A stretch of 64,000 nucleotides of DNA from sequence record PZ053912.1; one strand, 5' to 3'. This document shows positions 18,749-57,496 of the stretch, one piece after another. The stretch's first letter is position 1; every line of letters starts with the position of its first letter. The notes under the pieces were generated by a model. It was not told the DNA's origin. It made no database searches and saw nothing but the letters and a program-made list of their open reading frames with translations. This stretch comes from a phage. A program made the position numbers and the translations under genes.

Positions 18749-19295
18749 CCTCATATAAAAAATCCAAACTAGGCGAATCGCTAACAACTTCCTTCTTTTC
18801 AGCCCCAGGAGCTTTATAAGCGGATTCTTCATAATGCGTCATTTTATCGTAGATGTCTTGAATAAACGTTTCATCTACCAACGCTACCATATCATCGTCA
18901 TGACTGTCGTAGACATTATGAACGAAGTAACTATATTTCTTTGCAACTTCCTTACGTTCTTTTTTGATACGTTGGACAAAAGCATTAAAACAAGCTCGAG
19001 TTATGTATGCATGTGGGTTATTGTACTTAGTTTCGTCGAAATTATGAAGTCCCTTAATAGAGGCTTCAATCCCATCTGCAATCATCTCCTGCTTCCAAGA
19101 CTGGGTATATCCTGAAAAGTTGAAACGTTTGGACAGGCCTTCGGCGATAAGCATAATTGCTAAACCGATGGTATCATTCTGACGAATAATTTTGTTTGGG
19201 TCTTTATTATTTAAGAGCTCCTTTTTCCACTCGATTATAGCGGCGAGAAGCTCTTTATTATTCACATAGTTATTTTTAGGTTTTTGTTCAGTCAT
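18738..19295 (-). CDS. 55: Late-transcription sigma factor gp55
   Basis: 185 aa; [74 protein letters not shown]... matches recalled T4 gp55. Confidence 0.95.
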
Positions 19296-35043: not shown

Positions 35044-35095
35044 TTCTCCTCTAGTAAGTAAGATCTACTATAACACAACCTGAGGAGAAGTAAAC
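35044..35095 (-). promoter_or_regulatory. Early promoter (GTTTAC-17-TATAGT) enclosed by 8-bp arms that pair the SD (GAGGAGAA) with an upstream anti-SD
   Basis: Seen directly; arms at 35044-35051 and 35082-35089, -10 at 35067-35072. Confidence 0.5.
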
Positions 35096-38833: not shown

Positions 38834-39292
38834 CTAGATTTTAATCACTGCTTTAGAAGCTTTTCCTGGTAGTCGTTTACTGTTAATAATAGCCATTCTG
38901 CATTGAAGAGTCTTCATTTTGAATGCTGGATTTTCGCGACAAACTGTAAGTCCTAACCAAAGATTTCCATCAGTTATTTCTAAACGGCCTGGACGATATT
39001 CGACACCTTCGACAAAATCTTCATCAACATCTGGACGTGCCGGCATTGATAAAAATTCTGCAACTTCTTTAACATGATTTTTTACTTTACGAAATAATTC
39101 AAAAACGTAATTCTCATCTATTTCTCTCTGGATGGCACGATCTAAGAGATGTTGAGAATACTTGATATGAAAGCCTGGTAGTCCAAGAGACTTTGCAGCA
39201 TCTTTTATACCGGCATTTATTTTGCGGAACTCCGTTTCAAAGATTCGACGGAGTTTATTACGGCGGATAAAAACGTCAGAATTGATAGTCAT
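38834..39292 (-). CDS. regB: RegB sequence-specific endoribonuclease
   Basis: MTINSDVFIRRNKLRR...HIKYSQHLLDRAIQREIDENYVFELF...YRPGRLEITDGNLWLG...CRMAIINSKRLPGKASKAVIK matches recalled T4 RegB. Confidence 0.9.
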   Translation of the reverse strand: MTINSDVFIRRNKLRRIFETEFRKINAGIKDAAKSLGLPGFHIKYSQHLLDRAIQREIDENYVFELFRKVKNHVKEVAEFLSMPARPDVDEDFVEGVEYRPGRLEITDGNLWLGLTVCRENPAFKMKTLQCRMAIINSKRLPGKASKAVIKI

Positions 39293-39300
39293 TTTTGATT

Positions 39301-39350
39301 TCTCCTCTAGTTGACAGGTCTATAGTAACACATCTAGAGGAGAAGTAAAC
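39301..39350 (-). promoter_or_regulatory. regB early promoter (GTTTAC-17-TACTAT) enclosed in a 10-bp hairpin pairing the regB SD with an anti-SD in the promoter spacer
   Basis: Arms UCUCCUCUAG (39334-39343) and CUAGAGGAGA (39301-39310); -10 at 39322-39327. Confidence 0.55.
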
Positions 39351-40727: not shown

Positions 40728-41263
40728 TGCATTCCAATCACAAAAAATTGAGGACGAGCAATACCGCCTATGCAATATTTGCTTTTGCAGCAGTGCTGTA
40801 CTGATTTAATATGGACATTGTAAATCTTATCCATATCAGGAGCTTTAATAGGCTCGTCAATTATGTATAGAATACGAGAAAGCGTTAATCCACGGAATTT
40901 AGAACCTTCATTGCCAATAAAACTACGGACAGAATCAGTAAATAAACGGAATCGAATATCATCGCTAGAATAACGAGAAAATTCTTTTTTAATGTTGCCA
41001 GCAGAAATTTTAGCATAAGCTGAAGTATTAGAAAGAACAATAACTGTTCCATCGTCGTGCAGCCAATTAGCAGCAAAATTAGTTACTGCAGTGGATTTAC
41101 CTGATTGTCTGCCACCGTCTAAACGAAGTGTACAGTACTGCTTGAGTATGTCTTCAAATGGTGGGACATAACCGTTCTTACAAATTTCTTCTACTCTAGC
41201 ATCAGAATGGTGTGTAAAAGCATTCATCAGGGATAGATAAGGTCCAGTTAAAAATGTTTTCAT
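40724..41263 (-). CDS. P-loop NTPase, hypothetical
   Basis: Walker A GGRQSGKST; start taken at MKTFLTGP after GAGAGAA. Confidence 0.5.
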   Translation of the reverse strand: MKTFLTGPYLSLMNAFTHHSDARVEEICKNGYVPPFEDILKQYCTLRLDGGRQSGKSTAVTNFAANWLHDDGTVIVLSNTSAYAKISAGNIKKEFSRYSSDDIRFRLFTDSVRSFIGNEGSKFRGLTLSRILYIIDEPIKAPDMDKIYNVHIKSVQHCCKSKYCIGGIARPQFFVIGMQ

Positions 41264-41535
41264 TTTGTTCTCTCTAAGTTTGGGCCATTCCATGGCACAT
41301 GAATTGTCCATTTCTGTATTTACCCATTACCGCACTTGGGCTCGACCTTATTACAGGTTGGCGGGAATCCCTCATAGAATCATGAGGTCCAGCTTGTTCC
41401 CATGTTATTTGAATGTAAATATTTTTGCCTTAATACTTATACCAGTGTGGCTTCATTAAAATTTTTTCATCGAGTCATTTTACCTCTCCAAGTAATTATG
41501 ATTATACTATCACAATTCTAGGAGAAAGTAAACTG
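41264..41535 (-). other. 272-nt untranslated leader with an early promoter-like element near 41500-41530, a 3-codon uORF and internal hairpins
   Basis: No ORF longer than 8 codons on the minus strand; hairpin CCUCAU-GAUUCU-AUGAGG. Confidence 0.35.
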
Positions 41536-41838
41536 TTATTTACCTTTAATTACTTTAGCTGCTTCGATAGCCGCTTGCTGAAGGTCATCCATAGACATAC
41601 CGAATTTAGAAGCAAAGTTATCAATTTTCTTTTCAACAGCATTCAAAGGCTTGGCCTGTTTACCTTCATTAGCGCCAGGAAGAGCGAGAATACGCTCTTT
41701 GTCAATATAAAGGCTTACAAGTTTCTTACGGTCTTTATCGGACAAATCGTGAAATGAATGGGCCTTTTTATTTATAGCGGCTTCTAATTTACCTGCACTC
41801 ACTCGCGCTTCAGTAATAAATTCTTGATATGTTTTCAT
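41536..41838 (-). CDS. ipIII: Internal head protein IPIII-like, with N-terminal capsid-targeting sequence
   Basis: MKTYQEFITEARVSAGKLEAAINKKAHSFHDL...; the leader MKTYQEFI-x-E is the recalled T4 CTS. Confidence 0.8.
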   Translation of the reverse strand: MKTYQEFITEARVSAGKLEAAINKKAHSFHDLSDKDRKKLVSLYIDKERILALPGANEGKQAKPLNAVEKKIDNFASKFGMSMDDLQQAAIEAAKVIKGK

Positions 41839-41929
41839 TTTTGTTTCCTTGTTTGTTTTGATAGAGTAATTATACCATATTAATACTTAAGCGTAAACTG
41901 TTTAAGCTTTACCATCGCAACCTTTTTCC

Positions 41930-42343
41930 TTAGTAAATTGATTTACCATAGTATTTGTACCAAGTAGGACGTTGAGCAATTTTTTCATCTAAACGAGCTT
42001 GACTTATCGCAATGGACGCTTCGGTCGGGACATAATTATTACGAAATTCGGCAGGGATGTCGGAAATATCTTGGACAGTCGTGTCCTTGATTTTGAAACC
42101 ACGTTTCAAGCATTCAGCGATTAGCTCGATTTGACGTAAACGTAAAAATTCGAGTTTGTCGTAAAAGAATGTTACATGACCTGTGCCTAAGATAAATGTC
42201 GGGGAGATTTTAAAATCCTTTACACGTTTACCGTTTTGAACATGTTTACGGACTGCACCAAATACGCGTGGTAATTCACGATACTCAGCCATAAGATGTT
42301 GGTCGGTCAGTTCAGAAACAAGTGTTAAATTGATACGAGTCAT
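41930..42343 (-). CDS. denV: Endonuclease V (pyrimidine-dimer DNA glycosylase) DenV
   Basis: [34 protein letters not shown]... matches recalled T4 DenV; start at internal ATG after GGAGGAA. Confidence 0.9.
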
Positions 42344-42346
42344 AAT

Positions 42347-42400
42347 TTCCTCCAAGTAGTTGATGAATGTATAGTATCAAAACCCTTGGAGGAAGTAAAC
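42347..42400 (-). promoter_or_regulatory. denV early promoter (-10 TACTAT at 42371-42376) enclosed in a 10-bp hairpin pairing the denV SD with an anti-SD at the -35/spacer
   Basis: Arms ttcctccaag (42347-42356) and cttggaggaa (42385-42394) on the plus strand. Confidence 0.5.
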
Positions 42401-42401
42401 A

Positions 42402-42683
42402 CTATTTTTCTGAAGCGCCTGAAATATATTTTTCAAGACGTTGTTTCATCAGCGAGCCATTCTTAGCGATTTCTTCCGGTTTATCACACATACGCAACAA
42501 GGCTTCAAGCTTAACGATATCACTGGTGCGCTCAAATTTGCGAGTATCTATCTTACTAGCAAGTTCAGAAATACGTGCTAATAGACTTTCAGCTTCAACC
42601 AAAGCTGCACCTAGCTTGGTTGCAAATGTGTCAGTAGCTTCGTTAAGAATAGATTCTGATAAAAATTCACTATATGTTTTCAT
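42402..42683 (-). CDS. ipII: Internal head protein IPII-like, with capsid-targeting sequence
   Basis: [15 protein letters not shown]...; start at the internal Met of ORF 42402..42698. Confidence 0.75.
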
Positions 42684-43168
42684 ATATACGCTTTCCAAGT
42701 TCCTGTTTTAAATGTTGAGATTACGCGTTTCGCGCGATTAGGTGTCTGACGATACCATTTAGATTGGGCTAGATTTACTGCCGCTTCATCCCAACGTTTC
42801 TGTTGAAGCATACGAAGAGAATTAGTAAAACCTGCGACGCCTGCTACACCCATTTGGAAGACCATATTGACCAATGCACATCGACGAACTGCATCTAAAG
42901 AATCATATACCGGTTTAAGTTTAGCATTACCCAAGATTCCGCGAACGGCTTTATCAACGTCTTCATTAAATAGCTTTTCAGCCTCATCAAGGGTAATTGT
43001 ACCGTTGCATTTACGACCGATCATTCTGTCAAGTTCAGCTTTAGCTACGGCTAAAGACGGGTTCTTTGTTACTAAATGGCCTATGCCAATCGTCCAAAAG
43101 CCTTCGGTGTCTTTGTATAAAGTCAGTCTAAGACCTTCGTCATTACGAAGCATTTCAAATATATTCAT
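42680..43168 (-). CDS. e: Endolysin (T4 lysozyme, gene e)
   Basis: [32 protein letters not shown]... matches recalled T4 lysozyme, including the catalytic Glu and the DTEG block. Confidence 0.95.
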
Positions 43169-43170
43169 AA

Positions 43171-43194
43171 TACCTCCCACGTTTATAGGAGGTA
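43171..43194 (-). promoter_or_regulatory. Hairpin sequestering the gene e ribosome-binding site, with a late-promoter-like TATAAACG in the loop
   Basis: Arms UACCUCC and GGAGGUA, loop UAUAAACGUG; the same arrangement is documented for T4 gene e. Confidence 0.6.
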
Positions 43195-43202
43195 TTTATT
43201 AC

Positions 43203-43661
43203 TTATAGGAGGGTAGTGAGCACCTTATATAATGATTTGCCCATTACATATTCCCATTGAGAAGGTTTAATTAAAGCGAATGCATCAAATTCAGGAATCT
43301 GTCGTCCGTCTGGGAATGTATGATAGGAATTACAAACACTGTTTCTGAATTGCTCGTGCTCTACAGGGATGGTATATAGGAACAGATGAATATTCTTATT
43401 GTCTGAGTAATGATGTTCACCTAGGTCTTTCAGGAAGGCAGGGTCATATTGTGTAAACCCAGTTTCTTCTTCGCATTCGCGAATAGCGGCTTCAATAGGA
43501 GATTCGGCGGGCTCGACACGTCCTTTAGGAATATCCCACCGATGAGCTAAAGAACCTTTAGGACGAGAACCAGTTACACGCCCCATGAATAATTCTTTAT
43601 CTTCGGTAAGGAAAATAATACCGGCTGATAGTTCTTTCACTTTATTTTTCTTACTCATCAT
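43203..43661 (-). CDS. nudE: Nudix hydrolase NudE
   Basis: 152 aa; Nudix box GRVEPAESPIEAAIRECEEETG. Confidence 0.85.
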   Translation of the reverse strand: MMSKKNKVKELSAGIIFLTEDKELFMGRVTGSRPKGSLAHRWDIPKGRVEPAESPIEAAIRECEEETGFTQYDPAFLKDLGEHHYSDNKNIHLFLYTIPVEHEQFRNSVCNSYHTFPDGRQIPEFDAFALIKPSQWEYVMGKSLYKVLTTLL

Positions 43662-43902
43662 CTCGGTCCCATGATTTAGCCATTAATTCGGACATAAATT
43701 CTTCAATGCGCGTTTCTTTAGATGGACTTTCACTATTAGAGACCGCAAGTTTGTAATCTGCAATAGGACAGAACATATCAAGGTCCATATTAAGATCGTC
43801 TTTGATTTTTTCTTCTGACACGTCTTTATCGTATGTGTACAGATAACTATCACATGATTCTGATTTAATGTAAATTGCTATACTCATCTCAAATTCCTGC
43901 AT
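43651..43902 (-). CDS. Hypothetical acidic protein
   Basis: 83 aa ORF. Confidence 0.45.
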   Translation of the reverse strand: MQEFEMSIAIYIKSESCDSYLYTYDKDVSEEKIKDDLNMDLDMFCPIADYKLAVSNSESPSKETRIEEFMSELMAKSWDRDDE

Positions 43903-44375
43903 TCGGTAATAAAACGTTCAACTTCATTATTCTTGGCCTTTATCTTGGCTTTATGTTCTTGTAAACTACTTTTAATAAGATTAATAATGATGGCGGCGGT
44001 ACCGCCGCCAATGATGCCACCAACAACACTTATGATACTAGATGCTAATAAGATGGCAATAATATCAACAAAACCGAAAGAACTCACCTTAGTACTGAAA
44101 AACCATATAGACGGTACAAATATAATCCATCCTGTTATCCATTGGCACTTATTGAAAAACTTTTCAAGCTCAGCTTGAGTTGTTCGTATTACTTCATCGA
44201 TAGGTTGATATCCATTAATGTATCTGTTCACGATAATACCTGCTGGCTGGTCGATTTTAAATTCTTGGCAAATATGTTTCACTAAGTAGGATGGACATCC
44301 TGTCCAATCTACTGAATAGTATGAAATACCTTCGTTGCCATCGTCTATATTAGACCAATATGTTTTGCTAATCAT
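43884..44375 (-). CDS. Membrane protein, hypothetical
   Basis: 163 aa; central hydrophobic spans. Confidence 0.45.
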   Translation of the reverse strand: MISKTYWSNIDDGNEGISYYSVDWTGCPSYLVKHICQEFKIDQPAGIIVNRYINGYQPIDEVIRTTQAELEKFFNKCQWITGWIIFVPSIWFFSTKVSSFGFVDIIAILLASSIISVVGGIIGGGTAAIIINLIKSSLQEHKAKIKAKNNEVERFITECRNLR

Positions 44376-45061
44376 TACCAGCCTTCCATAGGGAATTCCA
44401 GATAAACTTGAGCGTTGACACGAATTTCATTGGTAATCTTTTTAACTCGGTCTGTATTACGAGATACACGGCCGAACCAACGCCATCCATTACTAATTGC
44501 ACGAGAACCAGTGTGCCATGTTTGCCAATCAAACTGAAGAAGAGTACGATCTGGAGCTTCCCATTTCTCTAGTTCGCCTTTTTCGATTTTTTCGAGGACT
44601 TCTTTGTGCCACTGGCGATAGATAAGTTCGCCATCAGGAATCTGACTGAACTCTGCAGTTCCTGTTGCAAAATGAGTAGGACACACATCAGCGTTAACAA
44701 GACCAAGAATATGTTCAGACAAATAGCGAGGATTGTCATAATCAGGTTGTCCCGCAGTAATAAAGTGCTGACCAACTGGAATATCAGGGCGTGGTACGTC
44801 ATCATGGTGATATCCAGGAATAGCAGGATACCAACCAGGCATCAGCATGTGGACTCGTGAATCAAATACAACCTGGTCGGTGTTCCAATCATCAGGCAAG
44901 TTCATGATGAAGCTGCGAGTAATAGGACCACCGTTATTATAAGCAAATTCTAAACTACAGTTGAAGAACATAGGCTCGTTTTTAATCTGGTCATTTTTAA
45001 TCGCATGAGCAAAACCACCTACTGCACGAGCTTGACTATTAAACACTTTAGAACTATTCAT
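44375..45061 (-). CDS. Hypothetical protein
   Basis: ORF 44375..45088 trimmed to the ATG after GAGGAAAA. Confidence 0.5.
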   Translation of the reverse strand: MNSSKVFNSQARAVGGFAHAIKNDQIKNEPMFFNCSLEFAYNNGGPITRSFIMNLPDDWNTDQVVFDSRVHMLMPGWYPAIPGYHHDDVPRPDIPVGQHFITAGQPDYDNPRYLSEHILGLVNADVCPTHFATGTAEFSQIPDGELIYRQWHKEVLEKIEKGELEKWEAPDRTLLQFDWQTWHTGSRAISNGWRWFGRVSRNTDRVKKITNEIRVNAQVYLEFPMEGW

Positions 45062-50616: not shown

Positions 50617-50645
50617 ATAGTAACACATCTAGGGAAGAAGTAAAC
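50617..50645 (-). promoter_or_regulatory. Early promoter (GTTTAC-17-TACTAT)
   Basis: Seen directly. Confidence 0.45.
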
Positions 50646-53713: not shown

Positions 53714-53716
53714 CTA

Positions 53717-54043: not shown

Positions 54044-54057
54044 CTGTTTTGTGAAAA

Positions 54058-57046: not shown

Positions 57047-57496
57047 TTACCCCTTGTATCCGAGTTTTCTAAGTCCGTCTTCGGTTAGAACTCGAAATTT
57101 TATATTTCTCTTTTCAGCAACAGCTGAGGCAGCTTTCCATTTGTCACAGTTCACAGACCACGTGTAGATTTCATTCATATAACGTTTCTTAGCCGCAGTT
57201 GTAAGATTCACCGGTTTAATAGGTGGCTGAGTTTCTTTCTTTGGTTTTATTTCTACAAAGAACTCTTGACCTGATGCATCTTTCATCCATATGTCCATAT
57301 AGTATCGACGTTTCTTACCTTCAGCATTACAAAAATATGGAATTACTGCTGTTTCACTACCCCATGCAATAATTTCTGGATTTTTATCTAACCATTCGAA
57401 AAAGAATTTTTCCCAGTTTGAACGATACGTTATTTTGGTATGGTCTCCACGGTATTTTTTTAAATTTTTTGGGACCCATTTACCAGAGTAGGCCAT
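57047..57496 (-). CDS. 4: Head completion protein gp4
   Basis: 150 aa from the ATG at 57494-57496 preceded by AAGGAGGA; the longer track ORF would run through the divergent promoter and into gene 53. Confidence 0.75.

Follow-up and report, generated by a model that had tools for sequence, protein, structure and literature searches.

The endonuclease V gene denV of a T4-related phage is preceded by a promoter that is contained in a hairpin, and from the predicted folding of the RNAs we consider it probable that this cassette lets the RNA from denV's own promoter be translated and silences the RNA that reads through from upstream genes. The stem would consist of the denV Shine-Dalgarno (SD) sequence and an anti-SD sequence set in the -35/-10 spacer of the promoter itself. 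RNA polymerase starting at about position 42364 would produce an mRNA that begins in the loop and is without the 5' arm, and the free SD of this mRNA would be translated. RNA from upstream, either early read-through or the later e and internal-protein transcripts, would carry both arms and fold into a hairpin of about -18 kcal/mol, and with the SD buried in this hairpin denV would be poorly translated. Since the own-promoter RNA would be translated without the anti-SD and the upstream RNA would be folded, the synthesis of DenV would be tied to the brief firing of its own short-lived early promoter and would be insulated from neighbouring transcription. The sequence anatomy of the cassette, the difference in predicted folding, and the conservation and covariation of the leader are described below; together they give strong, though indirect, support to the case for a silent read-through RNA and an active local RNA.

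The window, the whole stretch of 64,000 nucleotides that was analysed, comes from a Tequatrovirus, a relative of T4 (best match, phage ECCR664, 99.5% over 821 nt). On its minus strand, denV runs from an ATG at 42343 to a stop at 41930 and encodes 137 amino acids plus the stop. The product is endonuclease V, a pyrimidine-dimer glycosylase, and it matches phrog_1183 (endonuclease V, 1e-62), in agreement with the annotated denV of related phages. Upstream on the same strand lie the lysozyme gene e (43168..42680) and an internal head protein gene (42683..42402; phrog_3499, 1.2e-46), whose ATG overlaps the e stop as ATGA (42683-42680) and which ends at a TAG (42404-42402). The ipII ortholog (41838..41536, minus strand; phrog_7857) lies downstream. 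There is no promoter between e and the next internal-protein gene (ATGA, 42680-42683), the place where T4 has ipIII with its own cassette after e; the ipIII slot has therefore been replaced in the phage of the window. The gap between the internal-protein gene and denV is 58 nt and is wholly occupied by the cassette.

On the minus strand, the gap reads TAG, t, GTTTAC, TTCCTCCAAG, ggttttga, TACTAT, acattcatcaacta, CTTGGAGGAA, att, ATG. The -35 element of a T4-type early promoter, GTTTAC, is recognized by its sequence at 42400-42395. The 5' arm, the anti-SD TTCCTCCAAG (42394-42385), makes up the first 10 nt of the spacer, and the 3' arm, CTTGGAGGAA (42356-42347), carries the denV SD, GGAGG (42353-42349). 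The two arms form an exact inverted repeat of 10/10 bp with 28 nt between them, and the -10 hexamer TACTAT (42376-42371), which is the same in T4, sits between the arms in the hairpin loop. These features agree with the original prediction, made from the sequence alone, which had described exactly complementary arms of 10 bp at 42347-42356 and 42385-42394, one holding the SD and the other the anti-SD, with the -10 in the loop. The same prediction had placed the GTTTAC over the upstream arm; this part needs correction, as GTTTAC is directly adjacent to the perfect arm and its sole overlap is with a weak extension of the repeat (19 nt, 79%). Its comparison with regB was borne out, since the regB cassette also has a GTTTAC, arms of 11 bp and a TACTAT in the loop. 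An A-rich stretch directly before the -35, cagaaaaatagt (42401..42412, minus strand; agaaaaatagt before GTTTAC), holds the upstream TAG and may be an UP-like element, for which it is a candidate.

We infer the transcription start, by rule-of-thumb sigma-70 spacing, at the A that is the 7th nt after the -10 (42364), a position 21 nt past the 5' arm. In the window the -35 and the -10 are 18 nt apart, and in T4 17 nt. By its sequence, an 18-nt spacer with TACTAT is a non-ideal sigma-70 promoter, and the denV promoter was absent from the list of a generic promoter scan. A MotA-dependent middle promoter was considered and rejected: tGTTTAC ends 18 nt before TACTAT, whereas the MotA box, TGCTTtA, has its centre at -30 and stands 11-13 bp from the -10; in spacing and sequence the denV promoter matches the early promoters and not the middle ones (PMC2988021). 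A figure legend of PMC1702504 describes a primer-extension stop on denV RNA from T4-infected cells, which was attributed to a promoter. The T4 record AF158101.6 has only CDS features in the denV region, with no annotated promoter or start. Rfam gave no RNA family match for 41000-44000 at E <= 1. The abstract of Valerie et al. 1986 reportedly already points out possible stem-loops ahead of ipIII, ipII, denV and orf61.9.

The inverted repeat at denV exceeds chance. Perfect inverted repeats with arms of >=10 bp and a loop of 3-45 nt number 11 in the window, compared with 3.75 +/- 1.9 expected from 100 dinucleotide shuffles, and the predicted fold of the 101-nt denV leader had a z of -3.2, none of 200 shuffles being equally stable. 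The hairpin alone, at -18.2 kcal/mol, was more stable than that of the e leader in the same window (-15.3 kcal/mol). The 5' arm TTCCTCCAAG was paired in both the minimum-free-energy and the centroid folds, and it covaries with the 3' arm (see below). The predicted mean unpaired probability of the denV GGAGG was 0.0001 in the read-through RNA (-110 to +30) and 0.41 in the RNA from the predicted start, and shifting the start by +/-2 nt left the predicted accessibility unchanged. In this model the SD of the local transcript is only moderately open (0.41). When the segment 5' of the predicted start was shuffled alone, the median unpaired probability of the SD was 0.25, and 1 trial in 500 buried the SD as deeply. 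Over the 92 genes called heuristically in the window the median was 0.30, and denV, regB and e were the three with the most buried SD. From these values and the arrangement of the genes, we infer the size of the translational effect and the actual occurrence of read-through.

The overlap of the e stop with the ATG of the internal-protein gene, together with the empty result of a scan for terminator-like sites on the minus strand from e to denV, makes read-through into denV plausible at the level of the sequence, and the internal-protein gene is a likely source of such RNA. A point against the lock is that the TAG stands just 1 nt ahead of GTTTAC, and ribosomes that end there could melt the hairpin of the read-through RNA for a short time and so lead to some coupling. 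In T4, denV and regB belong to the early-RNA/early-protein class, and e, ipII and ipIII to the early-RNA/late-protein class (supplement of PMC9697503); since T4 transcriptomics puts the denV RNA plainly in the early class, there may be little late read-through RNA. According to PMC1702504, T4 denV RNA tested in vitro had no structure around GGAG.

The hairpin resembles an intrinsic terminator in that a stable hairpin stands at the end of the upstream gene. We rejected this candidate: there is no T-run (the tail is AAAUUAUGAC), the loop is 28 nt, the stem overlaps the denV SD, and a consensus scan missed it.

To examine the conservation of the cassette, we compared 80 IMG/VR loci with DenV homologs, and T4. 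All 29 of the 29 distinct denV leaders that are not of the GTTGAC type have a GTTTAC-like -35 and a TAnnnT -10, 17-18 nt apart, directly before denV; the -35 is GTTTAC in 25 of the 29 and ATTTAC or GTTGTA in the rest. In the same 29 leaders, the predicted unpaired probability of the SD in the long RNA was <=0.10 in 28 (0.10 in three sequences and <=0.02 in the others, mostly <0.01; the exception, L034, had 0.40), and in the short RNA it ranged from 0.16 to 0.74. The arms themselves differ: T4 has TCTCCTGTAG/CTACAGGAGA compared with TTCCTCCAAG/CTTGGAGGAA in the window, and other lineages have further pairs such as CTCCGTTTG/CAAACGGAG and TCTCCTGTG/CACAGGAGA. Several lineages show a second, non-homologous layout, in which the anti-SD overlaps or directly follows the -10 (for example, ATGTCCTCCTA/TAGGAGGACAT, GATGTCTTCC/GGAGGACATC and TAGTAGCCT/AGGCTACTA) and remains upstream of the predicted start.

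We also aligned the denV leaders of the first layout only, anchored by the analyst on CTCC and GGAG, and searched for covariation. In this anchored alignment, compensatory changes were found at 7 of the 13 helix pairs. The number of double-change cells was 25, compared with 11.6 +/- 2.4 in shuffles (0 of 500 reached 25) and 2-9 when the partner was slid, and the covariation score was 0.379, compared with <=0.143 for the slid versions. By sequence comparison, then, what is conserved in the denV leaders is the pairing of the SD and not a sequence. The conservation of the pairing argues against a protein-binding DNA palindrome and, together with the missing T-run, against a plain terminator; the two layouts and the differing arms likewise argue, as far as sequences can tell, that selection acts on SD pairing rather than on a terminator or a DNA site.

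The same comparison bears on the reading that the inverted repeat acts as DNA, either as the operator of a dimeric repressor around the -10 (for example, for the shut-off of early promoters) or as a cruciform, which we regard as highly improbable. A palindrome around the -10 is a classic operator layout, repeats around the -10 occur at many early promoters of the window, and the mechanism of T4 early-promoter shut-off is still unexplained (PMC2988021, PMC3014915). However, the arm sequences vary from phage to phage and from promoter to promoter, and complementarity alone is conserved; one arm is always the SD, and several lineages place the arms asymmetrically to the -10. Moreover, G-U-compatible substitutions in denV leaders and in T4 regB keep the RNA helix and not the DNA one.

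The lock predicted from SD pairing was confined to part of the comparison set. The jumbo-phage loci (L024-L029, L033) have TTGAC promoters, a separate G+C hairpin and an open SD, with no lock of the denV type; loci L037-L042 have an open SD and no lock; and in the marine loci (L043-L081) denV overlaps the upstream ORF and there is no promoter. As the DenV loci of these three sets are without the design, it is limited to the T4-like (GTTTAC) group.

The cassette has counterparts in the window. That of regB (39300..39350, minus strand) has GTTTAC at 39350-39345, the arms TTCTCCTCTAG (39344-39334) and CTAGAGGAGAA (39310-39300), TACTAT in the loop and the ATG at 39292; its hairpin is -16.4 kcal/mol, and the predicted unpaired probability of the SD was 0.000 in the long RNA and 0.36 in the short RNA. 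The stem of T4 regB (L001 240-300, minus strand) is 15 bp long and includes two G-U pairs (TTTTCCTCTTGACTG/CAGTTAAGAGGAGAA, -20.9 kcal/mol), so the arms of regB differ between T4 and the window while the pairing persists. A third cassette, with GTTTAC, TTCTCCTC, TATAGT and GAGGAGAA in this order (35044..35095, minus strand), stands before a 59-aa ORF (ATG 35039), for which the predicted values were 0.001 in the long RNA and 0.63 in the short RNA.

In a census of the window, 17 minus-strand promoters of the form GTTTAC-N16-18-TAnnnT had an identifiable downstream start. In 5 of these 17, the predicted accessibility of the SD dropped more than 100-fold on the read-through RNA; their ATGs, all on the minus strand, are at 42343 (denV), 39292 (regB), 35039 (59-aa ORF), 21265 (82-aa ORF) and 45627 (66-aa ORF). 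In the remaining 12 the predicted drop was just 1-5-fold. This bimodal distribution suggests that the SD-sequestering cassettes are a distinct subclass. The possibility that TTCTCC after the -35 is a mere early-promoter consensus was rejected: of the 18 GTTTAC promoters in the window, only about 6 carry it, and 4 of those 6 are SD-sequestering (denV, regB, ORF59 and ORF82). The other two are the promoter of the deleted-denV remnant and the promoter at 50645, which is non-sequestering.

At the promoters at 54044, 53714, 46989, 45694, 34646 and 30852 (minus strand), an inverted repeat brackets the -10 (for example, GATAGGACTA and TAGTCCTATC at 53714), ends near +1 and leaves the SD untouched, and CCTATCAA is conserved directly after the -10; such stems of T4-type PeSLs (a cassette class described below) are without a T-run. 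The stems of most other early promoters of the window are off the SD, indicating that a stem can exist for other reasons. Strongly buried SDs were also seen before two other genes on the minus strand: the SD of the ATG at 19295 stands behind a MotA-box-like TGCTTTA and a TATAAT, and that of the ATG at 57496 stands with a late-type TATAAATA and GTCTCCTTCC, followed by GGAGGAC. These two may be the middle- and late-promoter versions of the denV-type design.

Leaders that sequester the ribosome-binding site (RBS) are known in T4-type phages. For e, soc, gene 49, I-TevI/II/III, segB and Aeh1 mobE, a transcript from a distal promoter has its RBS sequestered, whereas a proximal promoter placed within or after the 5' strand gives transcripts with a free RBS (PMC3014915, PMC2988022), and the T4 e hairpin cuts lysozyme synthesis 100-fold (PMC3014915). 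In this class, the 3' strand of the helix holds the SD and/or the AUG; transcripts from the proximal promoter are without the 5' strand and those from the distal promoter have it, so that only the distal ones fold and are poorly translated. The denV leader is similar to those of e, soc, gene 49 and I-TevI in that its SD is the 3' strand of the helix and the 5' strand is at or upstream of a predicted proximal promoter. In all the published cases, however, the proximal promoter is late (middle/late for I-TevII/III) and translation is delayed to late infection, whereas the internal promoter at denV is of the early GTTTAC type, GTTTAC-N18-TACTAT standing in place of a late promoter, and the anti-SD lies in the promoter spacer. 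The expected timing is also the opposite of that in e and I-TevI, in that denV would be translated only from the immediate-early RNA. The review by Edgell states that the known RBS-sequestering leaders 'are all late genes' (PMC2988022), and neither denV nor regB is among the cases listed in PMC3014915 (2010) or PMC2988022.

The late-promoter sequence TATAAATA was not found on the minus strand from 42300 to 44500. The e leader of the window, 0.8 kb upstream of denV, has the hairpin AATACCTCC/GGAGGTATT (43169..43196, minus strand), with a late-promoter-like sequence in and before its 5' arm, and its T4 counterpart is experimentally proven (PMC3014915). In this leader (43169-43220, minus strand), the two T4 late boxes TATAAATA read AATAAATA and TATAAACG.

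The denV cassette also fits a class that has already been described in T4-type phages and that the original prediction did not name, the PeSLs (promoter-early stem-loops; Arbiol et al. 2010, PMC2839356; Comeau et al. 2014, PMC4122927). PeSLs are intergenic and have an AT-rich stretch, a stem that lies in the -35/-10 spacer or across the -10, and an SD and ATG at the 3' end; their T4/PST consensus, TTTACW-N17-TAYWAT, is sigma-70-like; and they lie in hyperplastic regions beside indels, the internal-protein locus being the earliest cited example (PMC2839356, PMC4122927). In the window, the cassette fills the gap from the upstream stop to the ATG (TAG 42404-42402, GTTTAC 42400, ATG 42343), its promoter reads GTTTACT-N18-TACTAT after the AT-rich agaaaaatagt, and its stem (-18.2 kcal/mol) has the 5' arm in the spacer and the -10 in the loop. 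It lies in the internal-protein locus, where a second PeSL and a deleted denV were found and where the internal-protein genes beside denV differ. In the typical T4/PST PeSL stem (AGNA-loop-TCNT), as at 53714 and 46989, the 3' arm ends near +1 and off the SD, whereas in the denV cassette the 3' arm is the SD itself.

The authors who described PeSLs read the stems as a terminator or attenuator and a recombination site (PMC2839356), and the words 'translation' and 'ribosome' are absent from that 2010 paper. Applied to denV, the cassette would be a terminator/attenuator with a patch of homology, and the overlap with the SD would be incidental, CTCC and GGAG being an easy stem. Besides the fit to the definition, one RB49 PeSL stem, the only stem that the authors tested, terminated transcription in a reporter (PMC2839356). 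The locus has also been shuffled, as seen in the second PeSL with the internally deleted denV (41533-41408) and in the two different internal-protein genes that flank denV, and the same inner stem, AATTGTGA/TCACAATT, stands in the ipIII leader of T4 and in the denV leader of one of the compared loci (L019). On the other hand, the stem is without a T-run behind it (AAATTATGAC), and a scan for terminators was empty there. The SD is in the helix of every T4-like denV leader despite the shifted stem, which neither a terminator nor a homology patch needs, and the bimodal predicted effect across the promoters of the window points to a designed subclass and not to an accidental overlap. We therefore consider it unlikely that the first interpretation of PeSLs accounts for the denV stem. 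Its recombination part is probably also true: the cassette appears to serve as a recombination module too, the role already proposed for PeSLs, and this role is compatible with the translational lock.

Several observations in the locus concern the mobility of these cassettes. A second early-promoter/stem-loop cassette lies at 41408-41533 (minus strand), with GTTTAC, tttctcctagaattgtga and TAGTAT, followed further on by cttggagagg; it continues with ATGACTCG and then with the last ~65 nt of denV, and is thus an internally deleted denV pseudogene. This deleted denV matches L019 in two blocks at 93-94%, and the blocks overlap by 9 nt, the sequence suggesting a microhomology junction. It directly follows the true ipII ortholog, where the ancestral junction of ipII and denV lay, and the intact denV stands one gene upstream, behind a different internal-protein gene. 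The leader of T4 ipIII (L001 3950-3995, minus strand) and that of denV in L019 (1446-1503) are alike in AATTGTGA/TCACAATT and in the -10 TAGTAT. These near-identical cassettes are direct evidence that promoter-stem modules move between genes.

A further reading is that the hairpin governs the fate of the RNA, shielding the GGAG of the read-through RNA from RegB, or serving as a 5'/3' stabiliser or processing site. PMC3014915 and PMC1702504 describe RegB as cutting GGAG in the SDs of early genes and as easily inhibited by secondary structure. The SD context in the window, GGAGGAAAUUA, partly fits the RegB/S1 consensus GGAGRAYARAA as given in PMC1702504, which also states that GGAGG boosts cleavage, and regB, which shares the cassette, is itself known to be cleaved at its SD (PMC3014915). 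However, the SD of T4 denV is RegB-resistant through its 3' context, according to PMC1702504, and its hairpin is equally strong; a hairpin kept at a resistant SD makes protection from RegB unlikely as the conserved purpose. In addition, the local, translatable transcript is the one that would be unprotected. As is generally known, an interrupted stem of 10-13 bp is a poor substrate for RNase III, which speaks against a processing site. We regard control of RNA fate as quite improbable, more so than the terminator/recombination reading.

Sequestration of the SD on read-through RNA is thus the reading that we prefer, and the denV leader would be an early-promoter version of the e/I-TevI design, placed in a known PeSL cassette; the mechanism itself is not new. 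More tentatively, and going by predicted SD accessibility, roughly one in three early-promoter cassettes of the T4 type (in the window, 5 of 17) may be a translational insulator that carries an anti-SD in or beside its own promoter, with the gene translated only from own-promoter RNA, a generalization that we put forward as possible but somewhat doubtful. If true, such insulators would keep potentially harmful enzymes, such as a glycosylase that nicks DNA and a nuclease that cuts mRNA, within the first minutes of infection despite ongoing read-through, the e/soc paradigm would widen from 'late-only' to 'immediate-early-only' translation, and PeSL stems would gain a second function. As lock and key would be held in one module of ~60 nt, the control would travel with the gene in PeSL-mediated shuffling.

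If confirmed, T4-type phages would apply one hairpin trick in both temporal directions: the hairpins of e, soc and I-TevI silence the early read-through of late genes, and those of denV and regB would keep immediate-early genes silent on read-through RNA that is later or foreign. This would help to explain the sharp stop of early-protein synthesis while the coding regions stay transcribed. It would also add a translational role to PeSLs, which are known as promoter/terminator and recombination modules, and for annotation and phage engineering it would mean that a cassette that is moved, deleted or given a new gene alters translation as well as transcription.
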